Shown here: piece by piece, positions 106-46,200 of the stretch | Layout: each line of letters opens with the position of its first letter | Numbering within the stretch: the stretch's first letter is position 1 | IMG/VR virus record: IMGVR_UViG_3300037307_000307 | Length of the DNA stretch: 64,000 nucleotides | Reading direction: 5' to 3' (one strand) | Source: a virus | Taxonomy: Duplodnaviria; Heunggongvirae; Uroviricota; Caudoviricetes | The notes under the pieces: model-generated | The model's input: only the letters and a program-made list of their open reading frames with translations | Database searches by the model: none | Told to the model about the DNA's origin: nothing | Program-made: the position numbers and the translations under genes

Positions 106-399
106 ATGAAAATGAAAATGAAAGAAAAGAAAATTGAAATAGGAGAGATAATTACATTAAACGGTAAAGAGTATATATCGTATAATTATCATAAAGAACA
201 AATGGCCGCAAAGCCAAATGAAGTTATAAAAAAGGTCATAAAACCAAAAATAATAAGACATCCTTTAGATAAAAAGATAGCTAAAATGATTGATGAATTA
301 AGAAAATATTCTTCTAAAAGGTCAACTCCTTTATATGGAGTTGATGTTGAATGGATAGTTCTAGACGCAAAGATTAAATTATTGGAGAGCTTACAATGA
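106..399 (+). CDS. hypothetical small basic protein
   Basis: 97-aa ORF, K-rich, AT-rich codon usage consistent with neighbours; no recognisable domain. Confidence 0.4.
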   Translation: MKMKMKEKKIEIGEIITLNGKEYISYNYHKEQMAAKPNEVIKKVIKPKIIRHPLDKKIAKMIDELRKYSSKRSTPLYGVDVEWIVLDAKIKLLESLQ

Positions 400-472
400 A
401 TACTCAAGGCGCAATGCAGCGTGGGGCGGGGCCAGGTTTGGTTATGAACGGCCCGGTCGGGAGAGGCGTGGC
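397..472 (+). repeat. GC/G-rich island, family copy 1 (degenerate 5' box, G-rich body, ...ggcgtggcatgg end)
   Basis: Abrupt GC jump in AT-rich context; GGGGCGGGGCC G-runs; shares architecture with copies at 1071, 1326, 1630, 3122 and the array at 25.0-25.8 kb; abuts ATG of next gene. Confidence 0.5.
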
Positions 473-871
473 ATGGAATTAAACTTTGTTACCGACGTTA
501 TGTTAGTAATGCTTGTATCTCTATGGACTTGCATGATAATATTAATACAGATAATGAATTTTATGAGTTGGATGAAAGTTCCATATGAAATGTTTAGCAA
601 ATTATTGAATTTGTTTATTCATTCAATTTTAATATTTACTATGTGGCTTAATATAATTGTTCCAGGAACAATAGTAAGTTGGATTTTAATTGGATTTAGT
701 GCATTATTATTAATAATATATTTTATTTTATCTGGTTATCAGAGAAAGTATATTGATAGAAGAATTGACAAATTAAAAAAAGAAATCGAAAAAGAGATTG
801 AGGAACTTAGAAGATTTGAAGAATTAAATAAAATGTCAAAGAGAATAACAAAAAAATGGAAGAAGAAATAA
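473..871 (+). CDS. membrane protein (3 predicted TM helices) with charged coiled-coil C-terminus
   Basis: Hydrophobic stretches MLVMLVSLWTCMIILIQI, ILIFTMWLNIIVPGTIV, ILIGFSALLLIIYFIL, then KKEIEKEIEELRRFEEL. Confidence 0.45.
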   Translation: MELNFVTDVMLVMLVSLWTCMIILIQIMNFMSWMKVPYEMFSKLLNLFIHSILIFTMWLNIIVPGTIVSWILIGFSALLLIIYFILSGYQRKYIDRRIDKLKKEIEKEIEELRRFEELNKMSKRITKKWKKK

Positions 872-1167
872 ACATATCAGAATTGAAGCCAATAGATTCA
901 GAAGATTCGTATAGTGGTTACATTAACGAGAAATATGGTAGTAAAAGAAAATATGAAATAGATTATAAAAATTTAATATGTTGCGATTGTAAAAAGAATA
1001 AAGCAGAATTGATAAGAGGAACTTCAGATTATTTATGTGTTGATTGTTTTAAAAAATGGCTTGAAACTAGAAAGAATCCTATGGTAGGGCAAATATCCGG
1101 CCCGGTGTTGCCCGGTCAGGCGCCGTGGGGTTCGGCAAGTCAAGGTAAGGAGAAAATAAATGGATAA
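856..1167 (+). CDS. zinc-ribbon protein (CCDC...CVDC); C-terminal 28 aa are encoded by GC-island copy 2
   Basis: Two CxxC pairs; the G/P/A-rich tail (PMVGQISGPVLPGQAPWGSASQG) coincides with the GC-rich element at 1071-1150. Confidence 0.45.
   Translation: MEEEINISELKPIDSEDSYSGYINEKYGSKRKYEIDYKNLICCDCKKNKAELIRGTSDYLCVDCFKKWLETRKNPMVGQISGPVLPGQAPWGSASQGKEKING
1071..1150 (+). repeat. GC/G-rich island, family copy 2 (ends ...ggttcggcaagtcaaggtaagg)
   Basis: GC-rich, G-rich, C-poor 80-nt block with conserved GGyAAGG 3' end; lies inside the 3' end of CDS 856..1167. Confidence 0.5.
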
Positions 1168-1327
1168 AAAATTAGAAGATAGATTGGAAATTATGAAGAG
1201 AGAATTAAAGGAAAGAGAGAAAGTTTTGCAAACAATGGATAAAAATAGTCCTTTTTACGATGTGCTTTATTTAGGATATCTTGAAAGAAAAGAAAAATAT
1301 GATTTGATGAGAGGTGAAAGAAAATGA
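1160..1327 (+). CDS. small charged coiled-coil protein (55 aa; below ORF-track cutoff)
   Basis: ATG at 1160 overlaps the previous stop (ATGGATAA); uninterrupted frame to TGA 1325-1327; bracketed by GC islands 2 and 3. Confidence 0.35.
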   Translation: MDKKLEDRLEIMKRELKEREKVLQTMDKNSPFYDVLYLGYLERKEKYDLMRGERK

Positions 1328-1418
1328 TATTATATTTCCGGTGCGGCATATCGACTGGTAAGGCCGGTTGGGTCAGGCGGGGTAGCGTCCGGTCCGGAAC
1401 GGAAAGGCAAGGTATCAA
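1326..1418 (+). repeat. GC/G-rich island, family copy 3 (ends ...ggtccggaacggaaaggcaaggta)
   Basis: atattatatttccggtg box, G-rich body, then the conserved cggtccggaa...ggaaaggcaaggt terminus. Confidence 0.55.
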
Positions 1419-1448
1419 ATTAACTAAATATTCAAGGAGGAATAAATA

Positions 1449-1571
1449 ATGGCAGAAATATTAGTCAAAAACGCAGTTACGCGTGAACCTGGCTATTTGT
1501 ATTTTGTCGATGCAAAAGGAAATGTTTGCAGAGCCAAAATGTCTAGAGGCAGAAAGAAAAGTAAAAAGTAA
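1449..1571 (+). CDS. small basic protein (40 aa), AGGAGG Shine-Dalgarno
   Basis: aggaggaataaataATG; MAEILVKNAVTREPGYLYFVDAKGNVCRAKMSRGRKKSKK; resembles the 49-aa MAE... ORF at 63488..63637. Confidence 0.35.
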   Translation: MAEILVKNAVTREPGYLYFVDAKGNVCRAKMSRGRKKSKK

Positions 1572-1629
1572 TTATACAAATTGCTTACTACTTACTAAAT
1601 AATTATTAACTTTATTTTATTTATTTTAT

Positions 1630-1716
1630 TCATATTCACGGTGGTTACGGCAGCGTATTGCTCGGTGCTGTCTGGCGCTGGGGGTCGGCGGGGCAAGGCA
1701 CTGAAAGGTAAGGAAA
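1630..1716 (+). repeat. GC/G-rich island, family copy 4 (TCATATTCAcggtgg...ggggcaaggcactgaaaggtaagg)
   Basis: Exact TCATATTCA box at 1630-1638 as in array units; G-runs; conserved 3' end; forms the spurious N-terminus of track ORF 1641..1868. Confidence 0.6.
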
Positions 1717-1727
1717 CATACAACAAA

Positions 1728-1868
1728 ATGATAAAAGAAATATTAGAAAAAATATTCGGTAAAGAAAAGAAATGTATATGTGGTCATTATAGAGACAAAC
1801 ATCATCCAATTGCTGAAAGATGTTTAATCGCTGATTGTGATTGCGGAGATTATGAGGAGTTAGAATGA
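1728..1868 (+). CDS. small Cys/His-rich zinc-binding protein (true start probably ATG at 1728, not 1641)
   Basis: MIKEILEKIFGKEKKCICGHYRDKHHPIAERCLIADCDCGDYEELE; the upstream part of track ORF 1641..1868 is the translated GC island. Confidence 0.35.
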   Translation: MIKEILEKIFGKEKKCICGHYRDKHHPIAERCLIADCDCGDYEELE

Positions 1869-2236
1869 AAAAACAAATAACAATGTTGAGAAACAAAATA
1901 TTAGCGGCAAAAGTGTATATCGGTAGAAGTGCGAGTTATGTTTCATTGTTAAATATGGGAATGATTATGTTTTTAACATTTTCAAAGTTGAGAGAAAAGA
2001 ATTTGATAGATTTAGATATGGGCGCTTATTTCATACCGCTTTATTTCGCAACTTTATTTTTATTCATATTATTTGGATATATAGATATAAAATTATTGAA
2101 AGGTCATAAAACTGAAACTGACATATTTAACAGTGTAACTCCTTTACACCCAGAATTAGCCGACCTAAAGAAAAAAGTGGATTATCTATATCAAAAGGAA
2201 ATGGAGGTAAAAAATGAAAACAAAAATAAAGAATAA
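1865..2236 (+). CDS. membrane protein
   Basis: Start overlaps previous stop; TM segments LLNMGMIMFLTF and FIPLYFATLFLFILFGYI. Confidence 0.4.
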   Translation: MKKQITMLRNKILAAKVYIGRSASYVSLLNMGMIMFLTFSKLREKNLIDLDMGAYFIPLYFATLFLFILFGYIDIKLLKGHKTETDIFNSVTPLHPELADLKKKVDYLYQKEMEVKNENKNKE

Positions 2237-2326
2237 GAAAATGAAAAAGAAATCTTGGTTGATAAGATTTAGAGATTATATGTTTAAATGGGCAGATGAA
2301 GCCGATAAAGGATGGGGTAGTCCACC

Positions 2327-2554
2327 ATGAACACTCATAAATTAAAACTAAAACTAAATGCAAGACTAATTCAATTAGAAAGCGAAAAGAAAATGATAAT
2401 GGATATTTTAGAAGAAATTACAAATATAAATTTACCTAGATGCCCATATTGCAATGTTTCAAATTTAAGATTTAATAAAGACAATACTTGTTTTTGTAGG
2501 TCATGTGGTCAATGGTCAGAAAAGATAGGAGATAGAATAATAAAACATGAATGA
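2327..2554 (+). CDS. zinc-ribbon protein
   Basis: CPYCN...CFCRSCGQW motif pair. Confidence 0.4.
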   Translation: MNTHKLKLKLNARLIQLESEKKMIMDILEEITNINLPRCPYCNVSNLRFNKDNTCFCRSCGQWSEKIGDRIIKHE

Positions 2555-2871
2555 AAAAGTAAAACAGCTTTGGGAAATATCAAAAGAACAAGAAGAAGTT
2601 TTTATAAAAAGTTTGCCTAGATTAGTCGAAAAAGATGATATTCCATTAGAAGAGTTATTGAAATTGATTAGAGCCGCGGAATATAGAAGAGGAAAAAGTG
2701 ATGGGCAGGAGGAAAAAAGATGAAAGAATTAGCTTATGTTTTTATCGGTTTGAGTATAGGAATGTTGTCTCCTTTAGAAGAGGCAAGTAAATTATATGCA
2801 CTGATTCCTTTGTTTGTTGGAATATTTCTATATTTCTTTGAAGTTTATGATAATTATAAAGGAGGAGAAAG

Positions 2872-3126
2872 ATGATACAAACAGTTCAGACATTAGACGT
2901 GTTCGATAGAAGTAGATGTTTAGAAGTGAAATTCTTCTATGTAGAGAATACAGAAAGACAAATGAATTTTGATTCAAGTGGAATGACTTATAAAAGTGCT
3001 AGAGAATATCTAAAACAAGACGGAGAAGTCATGGGTTTAGATACACTTCCATTAAATATGGAAAGATTTGGAGTTCCGAATAACTTGAATGAATGGCTTA
3101 GAGACAGGACATATCAAATTAGATAA
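2872..3126 (+). CDS. hypothetical protein
   Basis: Preceded by aaaggaggagaaag SD; 84-aa ORF. Confidence 0.4.
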   Translation: MIQTVQTLDVFDRSRCLEVKFFYVENTERQMNFDSSGMTYKSAREYLKQDGEVMGLDTLPLNMERFGVPNNLNEWLRDRTYQIR

Positions 3127-3198
3127 TATTCGTGGTTATGCGGGGTGGAGTTCGGTAATAGTTAGGTATCGTAAGCTTCGGTCCGGAAAGGCAAGGTT
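3122..3198 (+). repeat. GC/G-rich island, family copy 5 (aatattcgtggttatgcgggg...cttcggtccggaaaggcaaggtt)
   Basis: Same box/body/terminus architecture; sits between CDS 2872..3126 and CDS 3227..3475. Confidence 0.6.
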
Positions 3199-7752: not shown

Positions 7753-10700
7753 TCAGCATGATACTAGTTGCACTCCTGCCTTTAGATTAATTTCTGACTG
7801 TAATTTCTGTATTGTACAAGTTACTGAATCAGCAAATTGTGTTAATATATTCGAACTTATTGTTCCATCATACTGCCAAACAGCGTCTCCTAATTCTTGT
7901 ATACTTTCATTTGATAAAGTCAAATTAGCAGTTGGATAATAAGTTAATTCTCTTGTTGAATAACTCCATACATCACTTGCAGTTATATCATTCCCATTAT
8001 CAGTTAATGTTCTAGTTGTTGCATTCCATACTGAAGTTGGTATAGAAGAATAATCATTCTGATAAACATGGAAGTCATTTAAGCTGAAGTATTTTCTATC
8101 TTCAACTATACAATTTGTATAATAAGCATATATTCCAAGTTGTGCCGGAACTGTAAAGTCATAGATATATGCACCATCTCCTATCTCAGTCATTGACTGA
8201 TTAAATATGAATGTAGTTGAATTTGGATATAATAAAGTTACAGTACAATTCGCTCCTGTTTCAACTTCTGCTAATGCACCAGTACCTTTAACCAATCTAA
8301 TTGCTATTTTACCTGCATCTCCATCAAGATATTCAGTACCTCCAACATATGTGTGTCCTATATTTGCAATATCTTCAACTGTACTTACATTTTGAGTAGT
8401 TCCAGTTGTTGCGAAATCAACTGTTTTATTTGAATAACTCCATACAGCATTCGCAACATCGCTATTATTTACGGTAGCTTCAACTGTGAAATTGAAATCA
8501 GTCAGTGTTCTAACCGCATTGGTCCACACTACTTCTTGTATCAAAGTATAATTTGTAAGGTCTGCCCATTCAGGATAATAACTTAATGTTCTATTTGTTG
8601 AGGCCCATACCGCATCAGCAATAGCCGTTGTATTTACATCAATTGTAAAGTTAAATTCAGTAAGAGTTCTTTGTGTTGCATTCCAAACCATATCAGATAT
8701 TAAAGTATAATTCACGACATTATCTAATTGTGTTTGGTTTACATTCACTGTGAAGTCAAAGCTTGTCAATGTTCTGTTTGTAGCTTCCCATACAACTTGT
8801 TGTATCAAAGTGTAGTTGGTTAAGTCATATTGATTTGGATATTCAGTTAATGTTCTATTTACAGAAGTCCATACTGCTTCTGCAATTGCAGTGTTGTTTA
8901 CATTAACATCAAATCCAAATTCAGTCAAACTTCTATTAGTTGCATCCCATACCATTTCTTGTATCAATGTGTAATTGATTGGAGTCGAGTAATTGGAAAC
9001 TATATTTTCTATTTCAGTATAGTTAGTTTGGTCACCGAAGTTCTCGTAGTAAGTCAAGTTTCTATCTGTTGCGTTCCACACCATTTGTTGTATCTTATTA
9101 TAATCAGTCAAATCAGTTGGTGCTGTATGGTTGTAATCAGTAAGACTTCTATTCACAGCAGTCCAAACTGCATCAGCTATTGCTGTGTTATTAACTTCTG
9201 CATTCACGGTGAAGTTAAAGCTTGTTAATGTTCTATCAACCGCAGTCCATACTGCATTAGATATTTCTGTTTCATTTACATCAACTGTAAAGTCAAAGTC
9301 AGTTAATGTTCTATTCAAATTCTCCCATACAACTTGTTGTATCAAAGTATAATTAGTCATATCAATATGTTCATAGTATGTCAAGTTTCTATCTGAATAT
9401 AACCATACTCCGGCGGCAGTATCTTCAGCTATCTTGGTATAATTAGTCAAATCAACTTGTGCAGGATAGAATGTCAAGTTTCTATCTGTTGCATTCCATA
9501 CTCCAACTATTATTCTGTCATAATCAGTTACGTCTTCGGTGTAAGTTAAGTTTCTATTTCCAGCATTCCAGACTACATCAGCAATTTGTGAATAGTTTGT
9601 AAGGTCTATTTGTTGAGGATAGTAAGTCAAGTTTCTGTCTGTTGCATTCCAGACTCCTCCAACTACATTCTCTGTTATTTCAGTGTAGTTAGTTAAATCA
9701 ACTTGTGCAGGATAGTATGTAAGATTTCTTGTAGTTGCATTCCATACTCCAACTATTATTTCAGTATAATTAGTCATATCAATATGTTCATAATATGTAA
9801 GGTTTCTACTTGCAGCATTCCAAACATAATCTGCTATTTGAGTGTAGTTAGTTAAATCAACTTGTGCAGGATAGTATGTAAGATTTCTATCAGTTACGTT
9901 CCATACAGCTTGAGATGTTCCTTCAATTATTAATGTGTAATTAGTCTGGTCTACCTGTGCTGGATAGTAAGTCAAGTTTCTATCAGTGTTATTCCATACT
10001 CCGACTATTATTCTGTCATAATCAGTTACGTCTTGGTAGAATGTAAGATTTCTATCAGTTCTTGTCCAAACATAATCTCCAACCAAAGTATAATTAGTTA
10101 GGTCTATTTGTTGAGGATAGTAAGTCAAGTTTCTTATTGCTGCATTCCACACTGATTCTGCAACTTGTGTATAATTGGTCAAATCAATTTGTTCATAGTA
10201 AGTTAAGTTTCTATCGGGCGCTGTCCATACTGCTGTTGCGATTTGGTCAAGAAGATTTACAGAGATTGTTGCAGTTGAGCCCCAAACTGTTTCGGCCAAG
10301 AATGTATAATTTGTGACATCAGCATAGAATGTAAGACTTCTATTTGACGCGCTCCAAACTGTGTCAGATATTAATGTATAATTTGTAAGGTCTACTTGAG
10401 CAGGATAGAATGTCAAGTTTCTATCTGTTGCGTTCCAGACACCTACAATTATTTGATTATAATCAGTTACATCTTGATAATAAGTTAAGTTTCTGTTGGC
10501 TGCATTCCAGACTACTTCAGCAACTTGCGAGTAATTTGTTAAATCCATTTGTTGAGGATAATATGTTAAATTTCTATCAGTTGCGTTCCACACAGCGTTT
10601 GCTGTTTCGCCAATTATAAGAGAGTAATTTGTTAAATCAACTTGTGCAGGATAGTATGTAAGATTTCTTGTAGTTGCATTCCATACACCAAGAATGATTC

Positions 10701-13086
10701 TATCATAATCTGTTTGGTCTCCAAAGTTTTGATAATATGTTAAATTCCTGTCTGTGTAATTCCAAACAGCAGGAGGAACTTGATTGAAGTACAATTCAAG
10801 TAATGTGTAATTAGTTTGGTCTCCAAAGTTCTGATAATAAGTTAAGTTTCTATTTGCCGAGTTCCATACAGTTTCCGCAATTAAAGTATAGTTTGTAAGG
10901 TCAACTTGTGTTGGATAATATGTTAGATTTCTATCTGGTGCGGACCATATTGCAGCCGCGATTTGATTAAGAAGTCCGACTGATATTGTTGCAGATGAAG
11001 TCCAAACACTTTCTCCGACTAGAGTATAATTTGTAACATCGGCATAATAAGTTAAGTTTCTATCTGAATTATTCCACACAGCAGCGGCAACAGCTGAAGT
11101 ATCAATTGATGCGGTTATATTTGGATAAGCAGTTAAAGTTCTTGTTGGATAATTCCATGTTGCTCCTGGAATATTATTAACGTGAATTTCTCCTCCTCCT
11201 CTTATTTGATTTATCGGAACTTCAACAAAATTAATTTGGTCTAATCTAACTTGATTCAATCTCAGAGTTCCAGCTGTATAATGATTGGGGTCACTATCAT
11301 TATATCTTACAATCATATTTCCTCCGCTAACAAATGAAGATATATTTGTAAGGGCTGAACTTACAGTTCCATCTGAAACTACATTATAAGATAAACTGTT
11401 TGCTAATTTATACCATGAACTACCTGTGTAATTCCATAAATATACATCAACTAATTCTCCAAAATCACTCCAAGTATATCTTGTAACTATGTCCGCTTGA
11501 TGATATTCCGGTACAAGAGTTATTCCTGAAATAGTTGTGTTTACATCTAAATTATATTTAGGAGTACCACATTGTTTGTAAGTATTATAATTTGTTGCTA
11601 ATGTAGATGGAGAAGGACTTGCAAAATTTGCATCAGTTCCCTTAATATAACAAACTTCATCCATTACAGTATTCTCGATGTCATTTCCACCACCCAATAC
11701 TGCTCCAATTGTAAATCCATTTGAAAGAGTTAATGTTCCAGATTGAGTTTTCGCTTCATCTAATAATAAACTTCCATCTATATATAATCGCATTCTTGTA
11801 AAGTTTGCAAAACCGCAAACTGTATGAAATTGAGAATCTATATATGTTCCAGTTGTCTCTATTGTCTGAGCTCCTGTACCACTTCTATCAGAAACAAATC
11901 TAATATGATTTCCTCCATCATATGAAAATCTTATAACATCTCCAGATTCTGCTGAAATTAATCTATTACCATTAGCATTACTTGCAGATTGATTGAAACT
12001 AAAACAAACCATGTAAGCTTCATTTGAAGCTAAATTTAACTTAGTAGCTGCTGCAAAATTTGTATAATCATTAGTTCCAACTCCATATCTAACTCCTGCG
12101 CTTCCAACTTGTCCTGGAACTCCGATTGTTGGACTGTTGAAATGAGTACCTGTTGTTGGAGACGCACTTGAATCGAGAGTTGATGTTCCAGAATATTCAT
12201 CAAGATGGGCCATAAGTAAAGTTGTAACATTTGAATGAGCACCTGTGTTTGAGTTCTTTTCAACTATTGTGAGATAATTAGAATCGATATTTGTCAGACT
12301 TGCACCAGTTCCATTAACATACCAACCGTATGTTAAAGCGTATGCTGAGGCATTCGTGCTTGTTGTTAAAGTGTAATATTCGCAAAAGATTTCAGTCATA
12401 TAAACACCAAGTGAAGAAGGAGCTGTAAAATCATAATAATATAATCCTGTACTTCCAGTTTGATAAGTCATAATAGATTCATCAACCCATTTAACTCCAT
12501 TTGGATAATAAACTGAAATATAACAAGAAGCATTGTTTATCGGAGTTAATTGATTTTCTAAAAGTTGAACGAAAACTTTACCATTATCTCCAATGGTATA
12601 TTCAGTTCCGAAGATATCTATTTTCTTAGCAGCTTTGTTCATATATGTTAAATCAAGCCAAGCTGTTGTTGAACCTATATTACCACCAGAAACTGAAATT
12701 TTAACTTCATATGTTCCTGTTCGAGTTATTCTATTAGAACAATCAAAATAAACGGTTGATTTACCAGCGCCGGAATAAGTTGTTGAAACTGTATATGTTG
12801 GGTTGTTACAAGTTTGATTATTAATTAAAACAGTAAATGTTCTGGTAGGATTAATATAAGCATCTATAACTATTATAGCGGAACTAACTTGACTAATACC
12901 GTCTGGAGGATTAACTGTTAAATTATAAGAATAGTTAAGATTTTGAGTTAAAGATGGTTGATAAAATGGGCTAAGAAATATTTTATTAAATTGTTGGGTT
13001 TGTTGTTCTGCACTAACAAATGACGTGAAACTAATAAATAATATCAGAAACATCACCGATACTATTATTTTCATTTTATTTTTCAT
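7753..13086 (-). CDS. giant (1777 aa) secreted repeat protein with N-terminal LamG/ConA-like domain and about 35 tandem 22-aa NLTYY repeats
   Basis: SD AAGGAGAT 12 nt upstream; signal peptide ...FTSFVSA|EQ; jelly-roll-like segment MVCFSFNQSASNANGNRLISAESGDVIRFSYDGGNHIRF...MRLYIDGSLLLD; repeat VWNATDRNLTYYPAQVDLTNYT. Confidence 0.7.
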   Translation of the reverse strand: MKNKMKIIVSVMFLILFISFTSFVSAEQQTQQFNKIFLSPFYQPSLTQNLNYSYNLTVNPPDGISQVSSAIIVIDAYINPTRTFTVLINNQTCNNPTYTVSTTYSGAGKSTVYFDCSNRITRTGTYEVKISVSGGNIGSTTAWLDLTYMNKAAKKIDIFGTEYTIGDNGKVFVQLLENQLTPINNASCYISVYYPNGVKWVDESIMTYQTGSTGLYYYDFTAPSSLGVYMTEIFCEYYTLTTSTNASAYALTYGWYVNGTGASLTNIDSNYLTIVEKNSNTGAHSNVTTLLMAHLDEYSGTSTLDSSASPTTGTHFNSPTIGVPGQVGSAGVRYGVGTNDYTNFAAATKLNLASNEAYMVCFSFNQSASNANGNRLISAESGDVIRFSYDGGNHIRFVSDRSGTGAQTIETTGTYIDSQFHTVCGFANFTRMRLYIDGSLLLDEAKTQSGTLTLSNGFTIGAVLGGGNDIENTVMDEVCYIKGTDANFASPSPSTLATNYNTYKQCGTPKYNLDVNTTISGITLVPEYHQADIVTRYTWSDFGELVDVYLWNYTGSSWYKLANSLSYNVVSDGTVSSALTNISSFVSGGNMIVRYNDSDPNHYTAGTLRLNQVRLDQINFVEVPINQIRGGGEIHVNNIPGATWNYPTRTLTAYPNITASIDTSAVAAAVWNNSDRNLTYYADVTNYTLVGESVWTSSATISVGLLNQIAAAIWSAPDRNLTYYPTQVDLTNYTLIAETVWNSANRNLTYYQNFGDQTNYTLLELYFNQVPPAVWNYTDRNLTYYQNFGDQTDYDRIILGVWNATTRNLTYYPAQVDLTNYSLIIGETANAVWNATDRNLTYYPQQMDLTNYSQVAEVVWNAANRNLTYYQDVTDYNQIIVGVWNATDRNLTFYPAQVDLTNYTLISDTVWSASNRSLTFYADVTNYTFLAETVWGSTATISVNLLDQIATAVWTAPDRNLTYYEQIDLTNYTQVAESVWNAAIRNLTYYPQQIDLTNYTLVGDYVWTRTDRNLTFYQDVTDYDRIIVGVWNNTDRNLTYYPAQVDQTNYTLIIEGTSQAVWNVTDRNLTYYPAQVDLTNYTQIADYVWNAASRNLTYYEHIDMTNYTEIIVGVWNATTRNLTYYPAQVDLTNYTEITENVVGGVWNATDRNLTYYPQQIDLTNYSQIADVVWNAGNRNLTYTEDVTDYDRIIVGVWNATDRNLTFYPAQVDLTNYTKIAEDTAAGVWLYSDRNLTYYEHIDMTNYTLIQQVVWENLNRTLTDFDFTVDVNETEISNAVWTAVDRTLTSFNFTVNAEVNNTAIADAVWTAVNRSLTDYNHTAPTDLTDYNKIQQMVWNATDRNLTYYENFGDQTNYTEIENIVSNYSTPINYTLIQEMVWDATNRSLTEFGFDVNVNNTAIAEAVWTSVNRTLTEYPNQYDLTNYTLIQQVVWEATNRTLTSFDFTVNVNQTQLDNVVNYTLISDMVWNATQRTLTEFNFTIDVNTTAIADAVWASTNRTLSYYPEWADLTNYTLIQEVVWTNAVRTLTDFNFTVEATVNNSDVANAVWSYSNKTVDFATTGTTQNVSTVEDIANIGHTYVGGTEYLDGDAGKIAIRLVKGTGALAEVETGANCTVTLLYPNSTTFIFNQSMTEIGDGAYIYDFTVPAQLGIYAYYTNCIVEDRKYFSLNDFHVYQNDYSSIPTSVWNATTRTLTDNGNDITASDVWSYSTRELTYYPTANLTLSNESIQELGDAVWQYDGTISSNILTQFADSVTCTIQKLQSEINLKAGVQLVSC
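8500..11100 (-). repeat. intragenic tandem repeats (~66 nt, 22 aa) within CDS 7753..13086
   Basis: Periodic recurrence of ...gttccatac...aagtttctatc... on + strand corresponding to VWN(A/T)xxRNLTYY units. Confidence 0.6.
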
Positions 13087-13450: not shown

Positions 13451-13610
13451 TTTATTTTGGGCTCATAGTATAATAGTAGTATATCCGCCTTGCACGCGGA
13501 AGGCAAGAGAGCATAACTCTTTGGGTCCATTCGTCCTCAAACTTCTGTTGCGGGAAGAAGTCAGTTGCTGCAATAACTGCTGGTTAGTTCTGTTTTTGAG
13601 GACATTTTAT

Positions 13611-13682
13611 GAGTCTATAGTTTAATGGCAAAAATATCTCTCTTGTAAAGAGATGATTCCAGTTCAATTCTGGGTAGACTCT
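13611..13682 (+). tRNA. tRNA-Tyr (anticodon GTA)
   Basis: Acceptor GAGTCTA/TAGACTC 7 bp, U8, anticodon stem CTCTC/GAGAG with loop TTGTAAA, T-arm CCAG-TTCAATT-CTGG. Confidence 0.6.
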
Positions 13683-13684
13683 TC

Positions 13685-13755
13685 GGGGTGTTAAGATAAT
13701 GGCAGTCTCCGCCGTTTGGAACGGCGTTGCCCTGGTTCGATTCCAGGATATCCCA
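13685..13755 (+). tRNA. tRNA-Pro (anticodon TGG)
   Basis: Acceptor GGGGTGT/ATATCCC with 2 G-U pairs, anticodon stem CGCCG/CGGCG loop TTTGGAA, T-arm CCTGG-TTCGATT-CCAGG. Confidence 0.55.
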
Positions 13756-13757
13756 TC

Positions 13758-13824
13758 GGGTTGAGGACAGGAGAGTAAGGCGCGACTCGGCGCTGTGGGC
13801 TCCGCGAGTCTTGGCTTCAACCCA
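13758..13824 (+). other. tRNA-like 67-nt element (acceptor-like GGGTTGA...TCAACCC) lacking a canonical T-arm; possible tRNA remnant or atypical structured RNA
   Basis: Perfect 7-bp terminal complement, internal GACTCG...CGAGTC hairpin, GC-rich, sits between tRNA-Pro and tRNA-Gln. Confidence 0.2.
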
Positions 13825-13826
13825 AT

Positions 13827-13899
13827 AGCCTTGTAGTCTAGCGGCCAAGGACTGCGGACTTTGACTCCGCGAACCCAGGTTCGAATCCTGGCGAGGCTA
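13827..13899 (+). tRNA. tRNA-Gln (anticodon TTG)
   Basis: Acceptor AGCCTTG/CGAGGCT, anticodon stem GCGGA/TCCGC loop CTTTGAC, T-arm CAGG-TTCGAAT-CCTG. Confidence 0.6.
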
Positions 13900-13911
13900 T
13901 CGGCTCATAAG

Positions 13912-23090: not shown

Positions 23091-24692
23091 TCAATTGGAT
23101 TTAGACATTCCATTTATAATTTGTTTTGCAACATAATGTGCACTTCCAAATATTATTATTCCTGGAATAACCGCAATTCCCGCCCCAACAAGTACTGCTG
23201 GAGCCAACAATGTAGATGATATCGTGGCAAGAGAACCAAATCCTAATGATTCAAGCATACTGGCTGCTTCGTGGGTTTTCTTTTCAATTCCTTTTTCAAG
23301 AGCATCTATTTGCATAACTATTTTTCCGTTTTGCCATATTCTAACTTTTTTATCTTCTTCTGAAGTTAGAAAAACTTTGTTTCCATTTAGAGAAGCAGTG
23401 TATGCTGCCGAATTACCTGTAATAAATATTTTATTTTTTCTTCTAGCTATAACTGTATTATTATTATTAGTTGTTGGACAGAATACTATTCCATTGTATT
23501 TTTTCTCCTTTATCTCATTTCTAAAAACGTTACATTCATTGAATCTATTAATATTTGTTTTATAATATCCTTTTGAATCAATATATGTATTTGAATTTCT
23601 ATTTAATAAGATACAAAGTGTTTTAAAAAAATCTAGTCTTTTTTTGTTTTGAGTTCTTATATCTCCTTCCCAATTTTTATTACGTTTGTGCCCATCTCCT
23701 AACATCATTGAATTATATATCTCTTGTAATTCCTCTCCTTTTAATTCAAATATAGAATGTTTAGGTGTTCTATCAATATTAATAAAATCAAAAATCCATT
23801 TAGAATCTTTTGAGAATATTCTAAATTTACAATATCTTTTTAATTTACCATCGTAAGGTGAAAGTTGATTATATATATTCTTTGAAAATGTTAAGCCACT
23901 GGATACCAAAGTATCTTCTATTATTTTACATTTGTTTTTATTTGCTGTAAAACTTTGAACTATTTCTATAGATTTATCTCTTTTACTAATATAAGCATCA
24001 GATAAAACCCATCCTAAAATAGAAGCTTTTATTTTCCCAATACTTTTACCATTTTTTTTAAAAGAAGATAATTTATGTTTTGTTTTAATTTTTTCGGATA
24101 TTTGATTATAAGGAATTAATTTGTAATTATTATAGATAATTTTTCTGGAGTCTCCTTTTCCAATTCTCTTTCCAATCTTAACGAGCCCTTTATGTTCATT
24201 TGTTACAATGAAATCTAAAAATCTATTTTTAATATGAAAAACCTTTTCATTGATTTTATCAATGAAAATATCTTTAATCTTATCTTCCTCTATAATATCT
24301 TTTTTTAAATTATAGTTTAAGATTATATCTCCTTTGTTCAAATCTTTATATCTCTTCCAACCTTTTATTGTCAATATTTCAGTATCAGAACTTAAACAAT
24401 GTCTTGTACCATATCCTGTAAGAGTTTGAACATTTTTAATATTCATTCCATATCCAATCATTTCTCCTTGAGGATTAACAATACAAGCACCGTCGAGTAA
24501 CGCAAGTGCTTCAGCTCTTCTTTCAGAACCAATTATATTAAACTTAACAACATCTTGAGGAAACAAAGGTTCATATTCAATCGGTTTGTCCATTAGAACA
24601 ATTAAACAACCTTTGTTATTCTTTGCTATTTTTAAGCAGATATCAATTAAAGTTTTTTCAATTTCATTTGTCATAGTATATGTAAATAACAT
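23091..24692 (-). CDS. diadenylate cyclase (DAC/DisA_N domain, c-di-AMP synthase-like) interrupted by an intein; C-terminal membrane anchor
   Basis: N-extein LLDGACIVNPQGEMIGYG...LTGYGTRH | C-extein SAAYTASLNGNKVFLTSEEDKKVRIWQNG matches the DGA and GTRHRAA...VSEETG DAC signatures; C-terminal TM LATISSTLLAPAVLVGAGIAVIPGIIIFG. Confidence 0.65.
   Translation of the reverse strand: MLFTYTMTNEIEKTLIDICLKIAKNNKGCLIVLMDKPIEYEPLFPQDVVKFNIIGSERRAEALALLDGACIVNPQGEMIGYGMNIKNVQTLTGYGTRHCLSSDTEILTIKGWKRYKDLNKGDIILNYNLKKDIIEEDKIKDIFIDKINEKVFHIKNRFLDFIVTNEHKGLVKIGKRIGKGDSRKIIYNNYKLIPYNQISEKIKTKHKLSSFKKNGKSIGKIKASILGWVLSDAYISKRDKSIEIVQSFTANKNKCKIIEDTLVSSGLTFSKNIYNQLSPYDGKLKRYCKFRIFSKDSKWIFDFINIDRTPKHSIFELKGEELQEIYNSMMLGDGHKRNKNWEGDIRTQNKKRLDFFKTLCILLNRNSNTYIDSKGYYKTNINRFNECNVFRNEIKEKKYNGIVFCPTTNNNNTVIARRKNKIFITGNSAAYTASLNGNKVFLTSEEDKKVRIWQNGKIVMQIDALEKGIEKKTHEAASMLESLGFGSLATISSTLLAPAVLVGAGIAVIPGIIIFGSAHYVAKQIINGMSKSN
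23412..24398 (-). mobile_element. intein (~329 aa) with LAGLIDADG-type homing-endonuclease motifs, inserted after GTRH of the DAC motif
   Basis: Block A CLSSDTEILTIKGW directly after extein His; LAGLIDADG-like ILGWVLSDAYISKRDKS and MMLGDGHKRNKNWEGD; ends ...IFITGN followed by +1 Ser. Confidence 0.55.
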
Positions 24693-25023
24693 TTTTATAA
24701 AAAAGACAAAGTTTATATATTTAATGCTCTACATTGAAAAATGAACAAAAACAGAGCATATTTCTTATATCCTAGGCAATACCAGGTCGGGCCCTCTAGT
24801 AATATGGCCAATGGTTTCGGTAATTTCTTTGGAAATTACGCTCTGCCATCATTGAGCATCCCTGGTATTGCCACCTTCTATTCCATCAAACGTAATGGGT
24901 TTGAACACCAATTTATTCCCATAAGCGGTCACTAACTTAAAGCTACGATGCCACTGAGGTGTACGTGTTAGTGCATCACCTTATTGATGGATAAATCGCA
25001 AGTCGCTTTGCGGTTTTGTACAA

Positions 25024-25790
25024 TCATATTCAAAGCAAAGCATGGCGCGTTTAGGCAAATGTCTTGTGAGGCGATGTGAGGCAAGGTAATCATATTCACT
25101 TGGCTATCTCTGGCGGGGCAGATTCAGGATAGGACAGGCCAGGCGACGTAAGGTAAGGATTTCATATTCATTGGCGCGGCTATTTTAGGCGTGGCGCGGA
25201 CTCGTCTTGTTGGGTCTGGTAATGTAGCGCTGGGCGGAGTAAGGTTTGGTTTAAGGTTTGGCAAGGAATCATATTTATGTGGTTCGTTTTGGTCGTTCAG
25301 TGCGAGGCGCAGTCAGGAATGGTGGGGCAAGGATTCATAGTCATTCGTGACGACAGGTACTATTCGGTCCCGGACTCTTTGCGACTCTTCGGAGTGGAGA
25401 GAAATGATGGTGACCACTTAACCTGTTTCAATATCATATTTATTTGGTTAGGTAAATCTCGGAGTGGGCCTTGTCGGGCGTTGTTGGGTCGGGCAGTTGT
25501 ATCGCTAGGAGGGGTTAGGTATGCTGGGCACGGTTCAAGGTTTGGCAAGGAAATTAATTTCATATTCCTTGGTCCGTTTTGGTAAGGTCAATTTTGGTGA
25601 GGCCGCGTAATGTTTGGTGCGGGATTGCGAGGTTCTGCACGGCGGGGTTTGTTGGGGCCGAAGAAGGAAAGGTTTGAGCTAAGGCAAGGAACTCAAATTC
25701 ATATTCATTTGGTACGGTCCGGAGCCGGCGAGTTTCGGTCAGGTTAGTTGAAGTACGGAAAGGTAAGGAAATCGTATTCAAACCATGTTT
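25024..25790 (+). repeat. tandem array of ~8 GC/G-rich island units (box TCATATTCAyTTGG; variable 50-125 nt GG-periodic body; 3' (A)AGGyAAGG(A)A), same family as the 5 dispersed copies at 0.4-3.2 kb
   Basis: Boxes at 25024, 25090, 25162, 25269, 25335, 25434, 25560, 25699, 25772 (spacings 66-139 nt); GGCAAGG/GGTAAGG immediately before each box; strong G-over-C strand bias; no ORF conservation. Confidence 0.65.
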
Positions 25791-32946: not shown

Positions 32947-33188
32947 TGGTACAAAAGATAGTTAGAACTTGGCTTGTAGTGGATGTAAGAACTGGAAATT
33001 GCAGATGTGTTAAGAAGATAAGGCCTTTATCGAAGGCGACTGAACTTGCGATAGATTTGAAATTGAATATAGATGTTCCAGAACAACCAGTGTTGAAAGC
33101 AGAAGGTAATATCACATTAAGTAAAACACAATTAAATAATATGGTAATAGAAGGACTTACTGACCAATCACAGGAGGAAGTGAAATGA
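32946..33188 (+). CDS. hypothetical protein
   Basis: 80-aa ORF coupled at both ends. Confidence 0.35.
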   Translation: MVQKIVRTWLVVDVRTGNCRCVKKIRPLSKATELAIDLKLNIDVPEQPVLKAEGNITLSKTQLNNMVIEGLTDQSQEEVK

Positions 33189-34126
33189 AGAATAAGATAT
33201 ACTTTGCCGGTAAGATAGGATTTAATGATTGGAGACATGATATAGTCGGTATGGGATTGAGAAATGCCGGACAATGGAATAGAGATGTTTGGCAATCCGA
33301 TGGACCAGATTATATAAATTTAGACAATGGTGATATATATTGTGGTCCATTTTTTGTTTCAGATGACCATGGTTGTGGTCACGGACCAAATTCACATGGC
33401 ACTGGAAATGAAAATACAAATTGTTTCACTCCTCCAAGTAGAAAAGAAGTATTCAATAGATGTATAAAACAAATAAGTGAAAGCGACTATGTATTTTGTT
33501 GGCTTAGTTCTAAAGAAGCATATGGCACATTATTTGAATTAGGCGTGGCCTTTGAAAAGAAAAAGAAAATATTTCTAGCAATAGATGAAAGTCTGAGAAA
33601 AACAGATGATAAGAGTTTGAAAGAAGCAAATGATTTTTGGTTTTCTCGAATTGGATGCTGGTATACAGAATATTATAATAATCACTATGAAGCATGGAAT
33701 AAATTTTTAGAATTAACAAATCCTAATTTTGAATCCGAGAAAAAGGACTTTGATAAATTAATGAGCACTCTCAAAGAATATGAAAAAGACGATTATATAG
33801 AATTGGCCAAGCGACAGCCAATGTCAAAAGTTATAACATATTTTAAAAGAAATAAAGACCATGTTAATTATTTAAAAGAAATGTATGATGGAAAATGTCA
33901 AGTTAAAAATTGTGGATATACTTTTAAGAAAAGTAATGGAGATAATTATTGTGAAACACATCATCTATTAGAACTGTTCAAATATAGAATAGACGACCCG
34001 AAAGTAATGGTATGTGTTTGTCCAAATCATCACAAACTTTTGCATTTTGGAACAGATGAAGAGAAATCTAAATTAGAGTTTGAATACAAGGATGAGCATT
34101 TAAAATTATTAGAGGTGTATAAATGA
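33185..34126 (+). CDS. fusion of nucleoside 2-deoxyribosyltransferase/DNPH1-like domain with C-terminal HNH nuclease
   Basis: KIYFAGKIGF...YVFCWLSSKEAYGTLFELGVAFEKKKKIFLAIDE (NDT-like YFAG + GT.FE.G.A...K signature); CGYTFKKSNGDNYCETHHLLELFKY...CVCPNHHKLLHFG HNH. Confidence 0.5.
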   Translation: MKNKIYFAGKIGFNDWRHDIVGMGLRNAGQWNRDVWQSDGPDYINLDNGDIYCGPFFVSDDHGCGHGPNSHGTGNENTNCFTPPSRKEVFNRCIKQISESDYVFCWLSSKEAYGTLFELGVAFEKKKKIFLAIDESLRKTDDKSLKEANDFWFSRIGCWYTEYYNNHYEAWNKFLELTNPNFESEKKDFDKLMSTLKEYEKDDYIELAKRQPMSKVITYFKRNKDHVNYLKEMYDGKCQVKNCGYTFKKSNGDNYCETHHLLELFKYRIDDPKVMVCVCPNHHKLLHFGTDEEKSKLEFEYKDEHLKLLEVYK

Positions 34127-38554: not shown

Positions 38555-38854
38555 ATGGCAAGATATTATAGGTTTAATAAAATAGACCCAAGAAAAAAAC
38601 ATCTCTACATTAGATGTTGCAGAAGATGCGGGCTATATTATAAAACAGAAACAAAAAATTCGAAAGTATGCTGGGAATGTAACCAGGGATACGGGATGGA
38701 CTATTGGAGAAAAAAATATCGAAATCAACAATTGGGAAAAAAGGTAGGGCTGCCGGAAAAAGATTTGAAGCGCAAGTCCGTAAAGACCTCGAAAAAGATA
38801 ATTGGATTGTTGTCAAATGGACGAACCAAATCGACTTCACAACGAATAAAATAA
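38555..38854 (+). CDS. zinc-ribbon protein; only the first ~54 codons likely genuine, probably fused by -1 frameshift to the Hjc ORF
   Basis: CCRRCG...CWECNQGYG; K-rich low-complexity tail overlaps 38704..39111 by 150 nt; A AAA AAA slippery heptamer at 38710-38716. Confidence 0.35.
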   Translation: MARYYRFNKIDPRKKHLYIRCCRRCGLYYKTETKNSKVCWECNQGYGMDYWRKKYRNQQLGKKVGLPEKDLKRKSVKTSKKIIGLLSNGRTKSTSQRIK

Positions 38855-39111
38855 TTCCAGCTAAAAATAAATTTAACCCATTTCTAGGAAGAGTTATGTC
38901 GGAAGGTTCCGGCTTTCCAGATTTCTTAGCTTACAAACTTCTTAACATTGGAACATATGAAATAATTGGAGTGGAAAGTAAACTTGGTAAATATCTAGAT
39001 ACTGAGGAAAAAAAGAAAGCACAATGGCTTGTTGACCATAAAATATTCAAGAAAATACTCGTAGCATATAAACCCCAAAGAGGTGAAATCAAATATGAAG
39101 CAGTCTGCTAA
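38704..39111 (+). CDS. hjc: Holliday-junction resolvase, Hjc/RecU-like PD-(D/E)xK nuclease
   Basis: GKRFEAQVRKDLEKDNWIVVKW (G..ERel...L...Gf.v.R) then GFPDFLAY ... IIGVESKLGKYLDTEEKKKAQWL (PD ... E.K ... Q.L); track start is TTG. Confidence 0.55.
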   Translation: MEKKISKSTIGKKGRAAGKRFEAQVRKDLEKDNWIVVKWTNQIDFTTNKIIPAKNKFNPFLGRVMSEGSGFPDFLAYKLLNIGTYEIIGVESKLGKYLDTEEKKKAQWLVDHKIFKKILVAYKPQRGEIKYEAVC

Positions 39112-43205: not shown

Positions 43206-46200
43206 TTAAGGATAGAAGAATTGCATTACATACCTACCAAGTACTAGGAATAATACAAGGAAGATTGTGTTCCATATCATCATTATTATGAAGTATTTCC
43301 AGATGTCAGCGACTGATTCACCATTTCTCATCTTCACTATGAAGAATCCTGTCGATGCCGCAAGTCCTATTAATAATATCATAGCCATCAATATCAATCC
43401 AACTTGTCTACTCAACAATGTAGACCTGACCTGTTGAGCAAATGTTAAATCAACTTGAGTTTGGTCATCTACTGTAGTTATTTGAGTATCGGTGAATATG
43501 CTGTTTCCATAGTCAGTAAGTACTCCAAATATTTCATAAGGATTGAATACTGTAACAGTTCCGTTGTTTACATATTGATTCACTGGCGTGACAACGCTTC
43601 CGGATGGATTTGTATAAACTGTCTTGTTAGAACCATCGTTTATATGTACTGTGCTTCCTCCGACAGTATTTCCTTGGTTATCTCTTGTAGTAATTGTTGT
43701 TGTCCATGACCTATACAATACCGAGCTTGAATCAACTGATTCAGTTCCACTATAAGTTGTATCGTGGAATGTATTTTGTTTAGATGATGATGTCAATACA
43801 ACTCCTCCAGTTCCAAGAGCACTTGAACTCATATAGTTGTTCGAGCTATTTGAATATCTAACTTCTCCTCCAGTAGTGCTTCCTATTGTTGTAAACTTGT
43901 TATAATCTGAATAAAGAAGAGTTATTATATCAGTAGTTGTTCCAGTGAAGTTTACATTTGTATAAGTCGACCCACTTGGTCCCCATACTTGTGAACCTGA
44001 ACTTCCACCAGGAGCTGGGCCAGTATGATTCTGATATATTCCATAAGTATTGCTTGAGAATAGAACATTATTCAAATTAGCAAATGTATTCGAAGCATCC
44101 ATTTGATAAGTATAACTTATCTTTACATTATTGTAAGTTTGGCTAGTTGTATTCAATATTGTTCCATTTGAAGTTACTGTGTAATTTCCAGTTCCAATAA
44201 GTGAACCAGTTGAATTGTAAACACTTAATATTACTGGGTTTCTGAAATGATAAGCATTCGACATTGCCAATCTATATGGATTAGATGAGTTTACTCTTCC
44301 AGTTTCATTTATAACTGTCAAAGTGGATTCTGAAGTCATATACAATCCATAAACATTATTAGCTATTGTATCATTACTCATTGTCAAAGAACCATGTTGC
44401 AAGAATATACCATAGAATCCATCAATCCAACTATTTCTGATATTTGTATTTCCTCCAGTTATTCTAACTCCAGTTCCATTTGAAGTTGAAGTATAAACAT
44501 TACAATTTATTATTTGTGTATTTGGATATGATGTTGCTATGCTTATTCCATTAGCTCCGGTTGTAATAGAATGTCCTTTACAATCTATTGTAACTCCAGA
44601 AGTCTTAACATCCAAGCATACACCAGTACTCTTGTTTAGGTCTCTAATCAATGAATAAGTTCCAGGGAATGAAAGTTCTTTACATATAGAAGTATTTCCT
44701 GCACCATATTCTTTGTAGACTAATCTAGTTGGTAGGTCAGTTCTATGGTCATAAATATCCCAAGCAGTAGCATTATATGTATAAGTTCCATCAGGTACTG
44801 TAAATGCATTATAGAAGTTTTGTACATAAGAACCAGAAGTTGCTGTATAATTCTGTGTTCCATACAATCTTATAGTGATGTTCTTTATATTTGGTTCAGA
44901 CAAACTTACATTTATTGGAATATAATTAGTTGTTACTCCTCCAGCATCTTCAGGTGTTGGCGAAGTATAAGTCATATTGATTGGGGCGTTTCCAGTTATA
45001 TGTATAACTCTTGAAATCTGTGAACTTATTCTTCCAACTTTATCATAAGCCAATGCAGTTATATTATATTCTCCATCTGCCAATCCAGTCCAATTATAGA
45101 ATGAAGAAACTGTTGGAGCCCCAATAGTAACATACTCATCGTTCAAGGTTAATTGGCCATAATTCAAACCACCAGGGAAGAATGATTGACTCAAATATCC
45201 AGTATCAATCCATTGAGAAGTTGCTTTATTCTTACACTCAAGTCTGTAATTTACACTTCCAGGTGATGTGAATTGCATTAAGTATTTGAATTCCATTGTC
45301 TTACTGGTAAGATTTATACAACTTTGATTAACTATAACTACGCTAGATATTCCTCCAGAACCACTTCCTCCTGGGCCTGATACTGATTGTCCTCCAACAA
45401 GATGCATTCTTATCTCATCGTTAGTTCCGGTATAACCCGAAACAGTGTAATTTGAATAAGCAGTGTAATTAGCAGTACTAGATAATGTAGCGTTTAATGT
45501 AGCATATGTTGTTGTGTTTCCAGGATAATAGATTCCGCTTTGGCCATCATAAGTCATTCCATTATTCACTGTCCAACCAGAAGTTGCAGTTGGAGAATAG
45601 AATAGATATCCAAGTACGAAGTTCTGTGTATTACTATATCCATTATTTCCTATATTCAATATTGTAAGATTTGGATAAGTATCTTGAACTGTGACATTGG
45701 CCCATAATGCAGTATAATCATAAGCAGTTGTTAAGTTGTTTGCTGCAGGTGTTGGATTAGTGAAGCTTATCACTGGAGTTATCAAGTCTATGAATATCAA
45801 TCTTGAAGTATTAGTGCACCAGTTGTAATTATCACAAGATGTTGCGACTATTGTATGATTTCCGTCTGATAAACCAGATAATGTTCCTGCTATTGTGAAA
45901 TTACTTCCTGAAGTTACAGGATAACTTGATGCGACAGCAGCGCCAGTTACATTATAAGCTATTATTGAAAGATTCTTCAAATTAGCATCATATGTTGTAA
46001 CATTGTAGACTATGTAACTTCTATTTTGATAAGACAAATCTCCATCACTATTTGGTATGAATGATATTGTTGGAACTACGCTATCAACAAAGAAAACAAC
46101 TTCTCCTTCTGATATTCTATTAGCCAAATCAGTATAAACCAATCTCCAAGTATTTGTTCCCTGTTCTGCTGCTAGATTACTTATTCTTACAGTTCCGTTC

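Follow-up and report, generated by a model that had tools for sequence, protein, structure and literature searches.

VIPR (Viral Interference Programmable Repeat) is an RNA-guided DNA-binding system that was first described in 2026 and is mostly viral (bioRxiv 10.64898/2026.04.26.720920, 10.64898/2026.04.26.720927). Its guide RNA, the vrRNA, consists of 9–16 YNNGG repeats in which GGY is conserved and NN is hypervariable, and the units form plain, staggered or hammerhead-interspersed arrays or occur singly. Vipr, an ancestral RAMP protein of ~20 kDa, assembles into a helical filament with one protomer per repeat, its pockets taking the flipped-out GGY while the NN dinucleotides are presented. 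These pair with double-stranded DNA such that every third target base, usually the wobble base of a codon, is skipped, and the binding silences transcription; the natural targets reported are satellite phages, prophage regulators and other VIPR loci (bioRxiv 10.64898/2026.04.26.720920, 10.64898/2026.04.26.720927). The published set comprises 667 VIPR systems. Here, we analyze a stretch of 64,000 nucleotides from a virus of the Caudoviricetes (IMG/VR record IMGVR_UViG_3300037307_000307; hereafter, the window), in which five G-rich islands lie within the first 3.2 kb and an array of similar units is found at 25.0–25.8 kb. To judge by its sequence, each island is very probably a gene for a vrRNA.

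The islands resemble the published vrRNAs in their tandem YNNGG repeats, in the conserved GGY and hypervariable NN and in their length, most units falling within the range of 9–16 repeats. As in VIPR, the carriers are viral, the units occur both as arrays and as single copies, related loci encode a small RAMP protein homologous to the SUSP1 Vipr, the decoded targets fit the one-nucleotide-skip rule, the wobble base of the codon being the one skipped, and no self-targeting was seen. Unlike in the published systems, there is no vipr gene and no gene for the accessory protein Vap in cis within ~66 kb, and where the SUSP1-clade vrRNA has a 3′ pseudoknot tail of ~40 nt, the units here have a 5′ TCATATTCA box and two terminal TAAGG/YAAGG repeats. 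Related arrays are punctuated by tRNA genes, whereas the VIPR paper has hammerhead-interspersed and staggered arrays, and the single copies of the window are threaded between small genes. As decoded here, the targets are motifs universal to methyltransferases; in its text, the VIPR paper names the three kinds of target given above and makes no mention of methyltransferases. The element class has been known since 2026; the targeting of methyltransferase motifs, the dispersed single copies and the missing vipr in cis are new details, and the target repertoire of methyltransferase motifs appears to be unreported.

The layout also recalls CRISPR and the Class 1 complexes of CRISPR RNA (crRNA) with RAMP proteins, in which a short conserved element alternates with a variable guide and periodically placed RAMP protomers flip out bases. 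In crRNA the period is 6 nt with five guiding bases, whereas here it is 5 nt with two guiding bases per repeat; unlike in CRISPR, the unit length varies from 44 to 167 nt and the variable part is compositionally constrained. No CRISPR repeat family of Rfam scored above threshold in the window, and no cas-like protein was found among the larger open reading frames (ORFs) of the window that were scanned (19 against PHROGs and 11 against Pfam).

The five islands were first noticed in a first-pass annotation made from the letters alone, and we confirmed them at the same positions as abrupt rises in GC content, from ~0.2–0.3 in the flanks to 0.45–0.63 (80-nt windows), in a background of ~28% GC. 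Their common 3′ end was borne out by repeat finding, which retrieved it in four copies, and the window contains 9 copies of the motif AAGGYAAGG where 0.7 would be expected, 7 of the 9 being inside the islands or the array. The GG dinucleotides described as recurring every 4–6 nt are indeed periodic, but the spacing is tighter than that: the period is strictly 5 nt (Y-N-N-G-G), with occasional slips of 1–2 nt, and the units of the window parse into 11–21 YNNGG pentamers followed by a constant TAAGG-YAAGG end. The shared 5′ box fared less well, as the exact TCATATTCA is present in copy 4 only, copies 1, 3 and 5 differ from it at two or three positions and copy 2 has no recognizable box. Similarly, the array does contain eight slots, but the fifth lacks the periodicity (Table 1). 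A detector of the YNNGG phase, applied to the window, found only the five islands and the array units, all on the + strand, and gave zero hits on the − strand and in 10 block-shuffled windows. All dispersed copies share their strand with the small genes around them. A sixth copy (c0) lies ~90–170 nt to the left of the window start on an overlapping Logan contig; the dispersed series therefore goes on beyond the window. Sigma-70-like promoters were not enriched.

The overlaps between islands and ORFs hold as sequence facts. Copy 2 lies in the 3′ end of ORF 856..1167, and an independent gene caller also places the end of that ORF inside the copy; the same caller starts the ORF at copy 4 at 1728 instead of 1641, in agreement with the view that copy 4 creates a false N-terminus. 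In c1, the final pentamer, CATGG, holds the ATG of ORF 473..871. Such overlaps had been taken as a sign that the islands are mobile G-rich insertions at gene boundaries, resembling miniature inverted-repeat transposable elements, and the dispersal of the copies over gene junctions, with one overlapping an ORF end and another making a spurious ORF start, is what such insertions would look like. We nevertheless consider this origin very improbable. No terminal inverted repeats or target-site duplications surround any island, and TCATATTCA at one end of the unit is not complementary to AAGGYAAGG at the other. What the copies share is the pentamer frame and the ends, not a conserved transposon body; every copy is on the same strand as the genes, and the content decodes to target motifs, as shown below.

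To place the islands in a wider context, we searched for relatives of the units. A pattern derived from the array junctions led to four IMG/VR loci on three viral contigs, and a stricter pattern to 78 loci in metagenomes and a single contig in an archaeal metagenome-assembled genome (MAG). The same kind of unit was present in 80 other environmental contigs, all of them AT-rich and mostly from sediments and saline lakes. The 82 sources (81 related loci and the window) contributed 376 units, of which 323 are distinct; the median unit is 68 nt long. When the units were lined up by their 3′ ends, the body proved to be a strict pentamer repeat with G at 83–98% of every fifth position, a pyrimidine (~95%) after the phased G, G or T before it and two near-random positions in between. 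The spacing from core to core was 5 nt in 1779 cases, the next most common multiple being 10 nt (267 cases), and the rest were mostly 10 nt or 2 plus 3 nt.

The units are predicted to be an unstructured, periodically marked strand, because 80 units sampled from the related loci folded no better than their shuffles (mean z +0.5) and only 1 of the 80 had a G-quadruplex in its minimum-energy structure. The idea of a structured leader, raised in the first-pass annotation, and that of a riboswitch find no support in the same comparison, nor in Rfam, which has no family that matches the units; over both gathering and permissive thresholds, Rfam returned tRNAs and chance matches only. Structured-RNA and G-quadruplex readings were dropped, as the units did not outdo their shuffles in folding, whether or not G-quadruplex energies were included. 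Antisense Rho-utilization sites, R-loop promoters, RNase E sites and TRAP-like or CsrA-like sponges were set aside given the 5-nt GGY/NN code and the VIPR papers.

A sponge or quadruplex deserves closer comparison, since the GG runs alone, with no guiding to DNA, could make the islands G-quadruplex or R-loop elements or titrate a protein in the manner of TRAP or CsrB. TRAP sites and the CsrB/RsmZ sponges are likewise unstructured RNAs in which many evenly spaced G-containing triplets are read by an oligomeric protein, the layout of a triplet and a 2-nt spacer resembles TRAP binding sites, and GG tracts every 5 nt could form two-tier quadruplexes. The motifs of TRAP and CsrB are, however, GAG/UAG or GGA and not GGY, their readers are a ring (TRAP) or a dimer (CsrA) and not a RAMP filament, and the spacers here carry information on a DNA target. 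Binding by Vipr fits both the pyrimidine that strictly follows GG and the linkage to a GGY-recognizing RAMP, the NN positions carry target information and, as said, a quadruplex was predicted in a single sampled unit; we regard these readings as barely credible.

The TCATATTCA box is a 5′ feature: among 104 arrays or single copies, 63 have it ahead of the first unit and 14 have it after the last. In several related arrays (L021, positions 1–720; also L099, L105, L116, L140 and L142), tRNA genes for Asp, Ile and Val are embedded among the units in the same orientation, and this co-orientation points to the G-rich strand as the transcribed one. Together with the shared orientation of units and genes, it is indirect evidence for expression as small RNAs. 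A tRNA can start as close as 1 nt after a box, and in L021 the units directly behind a tRNA have no box. These box-less units suggest that the box signals processing or serves as a handle and that tRNA processing is able to take its place. The arrangement looks like a tRNA-punctuated processing of the related arrays, a feature on which the VIPR paper is silent in its text.

A candidate for the protein partner came from the neighborhoods of the related arrays. The most conserved neighbor is a protein of ~183 aa (181 aa in L081 and L103), present in 53 of 82 sources, and its profile matched PDB entry 36pp, “SUSP1 Vipr protein,” over the full length with an E value of 8.3e-20. The guanine-reading G-loop of the SUSP1 protein, D177-W178-R179, aligns to D-F-R in the neighbor. 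A second conserved neighbor, a ParB_N-like protein of ~231 aa, stands beside vipr in 49 related loci and is presumably the accessory Vap. Members of the Vipr cluster share a marine-sediment metagenome with the seed proteins of the VIPR paper. The first-pass annotation had offered, as its second choice, small RNA modules recognized by a GG-motif RNA-binding regulator. This proved essentially correct: the modules match vrRNAs, in which a single protomer of the RAMP protein Vipr holds each GGY. That the variable NN form a guide sequence for DNA lay beyond the reach of that annotation.

According to the published rule, each NN is followed by one skipped base and the string is read on either strand. 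Decoded in this way, the NN strings of c0, c2, c1 and c3 spell sequences that match conserved motifs of methyltransferases, and the skipped base falls on the wobble position. For c0, a scan of IMG/VR with eight dinucleotides gave at least 120 exact matches, and 119 of the 120 listed encode VLDPFMGS; the matched ORFs that were scanned (3 of 3) belonged to PF01555 (N6_N4_Mtase). When all 14 codons were used, the best loci matched at 27 of 28 bases, even across two irregular vrRNA repeats, and 115 matches reached 80% or more compared with none for the shuffled guide. The opposite-strand reading of c2 is FDPACGTGGFLI, and a scan with nine dinucleotides gave 40 exact matches, all 40 of which encode (F/L)(D/E)PACGTG(G) in frame, in phages of 26–68% GC. 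Again, 3 of 3 scanned ORFs fell in one family, Pfam PF02384 N6_Mtase (HsdM type), and one locus (L174) matched c2 at 22 of 22 guiding bases. As a baseline, three patterns with 18–20 specified bases (those of c1, a2 and a7) gave no match in exact IMG/VR scans and one 16-base pattern gave 11 scattered matches. The exact matches of c0 and c2 fall within motif I of methyltransferases, in the reading frame and with the third codon position skipped, and the longer matches carry on across slips of the vrRNA.

The guide c1 decodes to [KN][SR]GGQFYTPR[DE]V[IM]. In 35 of the 40 HsdM-type genes matched by c2, c1 agrees best with an in-frame site, G(Q/E)x(F/Y)TPR, 84–117 nt upstream of motif I, where 17–19 of 26 bases match compared with 13.3 in the control. 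This argues for c1 being motif X of the same family, so that c1 and c2 would represent two neighboring motifs of one enzyme family. The reverse reading of c3 is VGGLPCQGF[SR][IM]AG, in which VGGLPCQGFSIAG was read as motif IV of C5 methyltransferases. Its best matches in a local set of 5.3 Mb were in unrelated phage DNA, VGGSPCQAFSIAG at 21 of 26 bases and MGGSPCQGFSFAG and TAGFPCQPFSIAG at 20 of 26, the best shuffled guide reaching 18; these we take to be the catalytic PCQ motif IV of C5 methyltransferases. For the last two dispersed copies, the likeness is looser. The forward reading of c4, T[SR][IM]SALAGSG[NK]T, has an end, AGSGKT, that resembles a Walker A motif, and the reverse reading of c5, G[DE][FL][IM]Y[IM][DE]PPYT, resembles motif IV (DPPY) of N6/N4 methyltransferases, with a marginal score against real genes (13.2 versus 12.3 of 22).

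Targets of this kind are not confined to the window. DPACG occurs in 5 of 331 family guides compared with 0 expected from shuffles, two units of L129 (at 13195 and 14117) decode to DPPYF and VGGFPCQPFS, a unit at 1997 of L094 decodes to IDPACGSGGF, and a unit at 623 of L082 decodes to ATGTGKT, the motif I of SF2 helicases as found in restriction subunits. Judged from these decoded strings, the targeting of restriction–modification motifs seems to be a family trait. Within the window, the guides with at least 22 guiding bases (c0–c5, a3, a6 and a7) had no self-target at 80% or above among the matches listed, the best listed being 17 of 26 for c1, 24 of 36 for a3 and 22 of 36 for a7; for the shorter array guides and sub-blocks, chance self-matches at 80% do occur.

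Taken as vrRNAs, the units would be expressed from an operon of small genes and cut out at the TCATATTCA box, which would act as the 5′ processing or handle signal. Each vrRNA would be an unstructured string of 11–21 YNNGG pentamers bound by one Vipr protomer per repeat, and the filament would present the NN for gapped pairing with double-stranded DNA and silence transcription of the target. The guides would be loaded onto Vipr made in an unsampled part of the genome or supplied in trans; the protein would have to come from elsewhere because none is encoded in the ~66 kb available. They would steer Vipr to genes for DNA methyltransferases of three classes, beta (N6/N4), gamma (HsdM type) and C5, in the restriction–modification systems of hosts or in rival viruses and plasmids, and the skipping of the wobble base would let one guide span very divergent genes. 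On balance, we lean toward seeing in the window a guide battery directed at the level of the protein motif, each guide specifying the first two bases of 10–15 consecutive codons of an invariant methyltransferase motif (beta I; gamma X and I; C5 IV; and probably DPPY). Such a battery may serve as a broad-spectrum weapon against restriction or competitors of any GC content, perhaps without a Vipr in cis.

If the guides are directed, as they appear to be, at catalytic motifs in each of the three major DNA methyltransferase classes, RNA-guided silencing would be linked to the restriction–modification arms race. The wobble skip would permit the targeting of a protein motif instead of one particular gene, and a single guide could silence methyltransferase or restriction–modification genes across hosts and rival viruses. 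The locus and its relatives also add three variants of architecture: box-delimited units, tRNA-punctuated arrays in relatives, and single guides between small genes with no vipr nearby.

Several observations weigh against these interpretations. The matches of c0 and c2 are in IMG/VR phages from unrelated habitats and show the motif that is encoded, not a natural target. An exact nine-codon scan of IMG/VR with c1 gave no match, and one with eight codons of c3 gave only 11 scattered, chance-like matches. No convincing target was found for c4, c5 or the seven periodic array guides in the local sets and exact IMG/VR scans, the latter including a2 and a7. The units lack the structured tail or pseudoknot that SUSP1-clade vrRNAs have at the 3′ end, their constant parts being the 5′ box and the two terminal repeats, and the 80 sampled units gave no stable fold; the vrRNA architecture differs between VIPR types (bioRxiv 10.64898/2026.04.26.720920, 10.64898/2026.04.26.720927). 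Finally, no homolog of vipr or vap was found in the window, 1.5 kb to its left and 0.5 kb to its right (including L153 and L155; ~66 kb in all). The search for them comprised hmmsearch on ORFs and six-frame translations, hhalign, and PHROGs for ten mid-sized ORFs, and the ParB_N-like candidate for Vap was absent from the window by the same profile searches as Vipr. In a separate comparison on 2.2 Mb of local loci, a set too small for the purpose, a skip of one nucleotide did no better than a skip of zero or two or than shuffles, and the one-nucleotide-skip rule used here is that of the VIPR papers.

The missing vipr could also mean that the units are orphan decoys, vrRNA-like RNAs of a virus without its own Vipr that soak up or reprogram the Vipr of a rival virus or provirus, an anti-VIPR device comparable to RNA anti-CRISPRs. 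The window is not alone in this respect: contig SDBU01003137.1 (L080 and L145), whose SPFH protein is 67% identical, has units and no vipr in the parts examined. The units of the window share the 5′ box and the 3′ end with arrays adjacent to vipr and should therefore be compatible with those Vipr proteins. A pure decoy has no need for meaningful NN strings, yet four guides spell methyltransferase motifs. Moreover, a viral contig of 57 kb (L021 and L034) has arrays both beside vipr and far from it, which makes a distant vipr outside the window an ordinary possibility. We thus consider decoys unlikely; a vipr in the unsampled part of this genome is the simplest reading, with supply in trans as the alternative.

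Table 1. Positions of the vrRNA units and of other features in and next to the window
Feature	Position	Strand	Description
c0, vrRNA gene	L153 1313–1396 (left of window)		Reading VLDPFMGSGTT[IM]VA, as motif I of PF01555 DNA methylases
c1, vrRNA gene	398..476	+	Degenerate 5′ box GAATACTCA (398–406); 13 phased pentamers (412–476)
c2, vrRNA gene	1080..1150	+	14 pentamers, one 6-nt slip; no clear 5′ box; within 3′ end of ORF 856..1167
c3, vrRNA gene	1331..1412	+	Box-like TTATATTTC (1331–1339) overlapping the first of 15 pentamers (1337–1412); two slips
c4, vrRNA gene	1630..1713	+	Exact TCATATTCA box (1630–1638); 14 pentamers (1646–1713); one 3-nt slip
c5, vrRNA gene	3125..3196	+	Box-like TAATATTCG (3125–3133) overlapping the first of 13 pentamers (3131–3196)
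ORF	7753–13086	−	1777 aa; internal DNA repeats at 8500–10430
tRNA cluster	13459–13901	+	Rfam-only match at 13459–13529
ORF	23091–24692	−	Thymidylate-synthase-like protein (PHROG 85)
Folded intergenic region	24770–25020	+	Just 5′ of the array
Tandem array	25024..25768	+	8 box-delimited slots
a1	25024–25086	+	Array slot
a2	25090–25158	+	Array slot
a3	25162–25266	+	Array slot
a4	25269–25332	+	Array slot
a5	25335–25431	+	Array slot, not periodic; TCATAGTCA box
a6	25434–25550	+	Array slot
a7	25560–25689	+	Array slot
a8	25699–25768	+	Array slot
Ninth box-like sequence	25772–25780		TCGTATTCA, after slot a8
ORF	33185–34126	+	Nucleoside 2-deoxyribosyltransferase-like protein
ORF	38704–39111		Hjc-type resolvase likeness by eye only
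ORF	43206–62846	−	6546 aa

The nonperiodic slot a5 occupies the kind of position that tRNA genes hold in related arrays. Its predicted fold, a closed stem that carries a UUCG hairpin, has an energy of −28.9 kcal/mol (z −1.3), and Rfam finds no hammerhead in the slot. The intergenic region just 5′ of the array folds far better than its shuffles (−89.9 kcal/mol, z −3.8); the fold includes a 12-bp stem of GGCAAUACCAGG and CCUGGUAUUGCC, matches no Rfam family and could be a leader or a new structured RNA.

Two genes of the window, encoding the thymidylate-synthase-like and the nucleoside 2-deoxyribosyltransferase-like protein, hint at modified DNA bases. As a speculation, the virus might shield its own DNA in some other way, which would fit the absence from the window of any methyltransferase motif matched by a guide at 80% or more. 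One of the related loci (L151, contig JAUXAD010000005.1 of the MAG “archaeon CSMAG_2753”) is a full VIPR locus with a Vipr (E value 4e-67), a ParB-like protein (E value 1.5e-75) and at least 10 units, and is binned as archaeal. The window itself encodes many zinc-ribbon mini-proteins and the Hjc-like ORF. Given these three observations, the host may be an archaeon. Against GenBank phages, the window gave no DNA match and no PolB protein match.

The N-terminus of the 6546-aa ORF is signal-like, and the protein contains seven Laminin_G_3 domains as well as DUF2341 domains, with a Hint/PT-HINT module in its interior (residues ~2142–2279). It is probably a giant adhesin or fiber, possibly with an intein-like insert. 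The tRNA cluster holds four tRNAs according to Rfam and three according to ARAGORN (Thr-TGT, Pro-TGG and Gln-TTG), and the match found by Rfam only may be a divergent tRNA. Within the 1777-aa ORF, self-comparison revealed DNA repeats of ~100–190 nt with 72–78% identity, and the protein is therefore repetitive.

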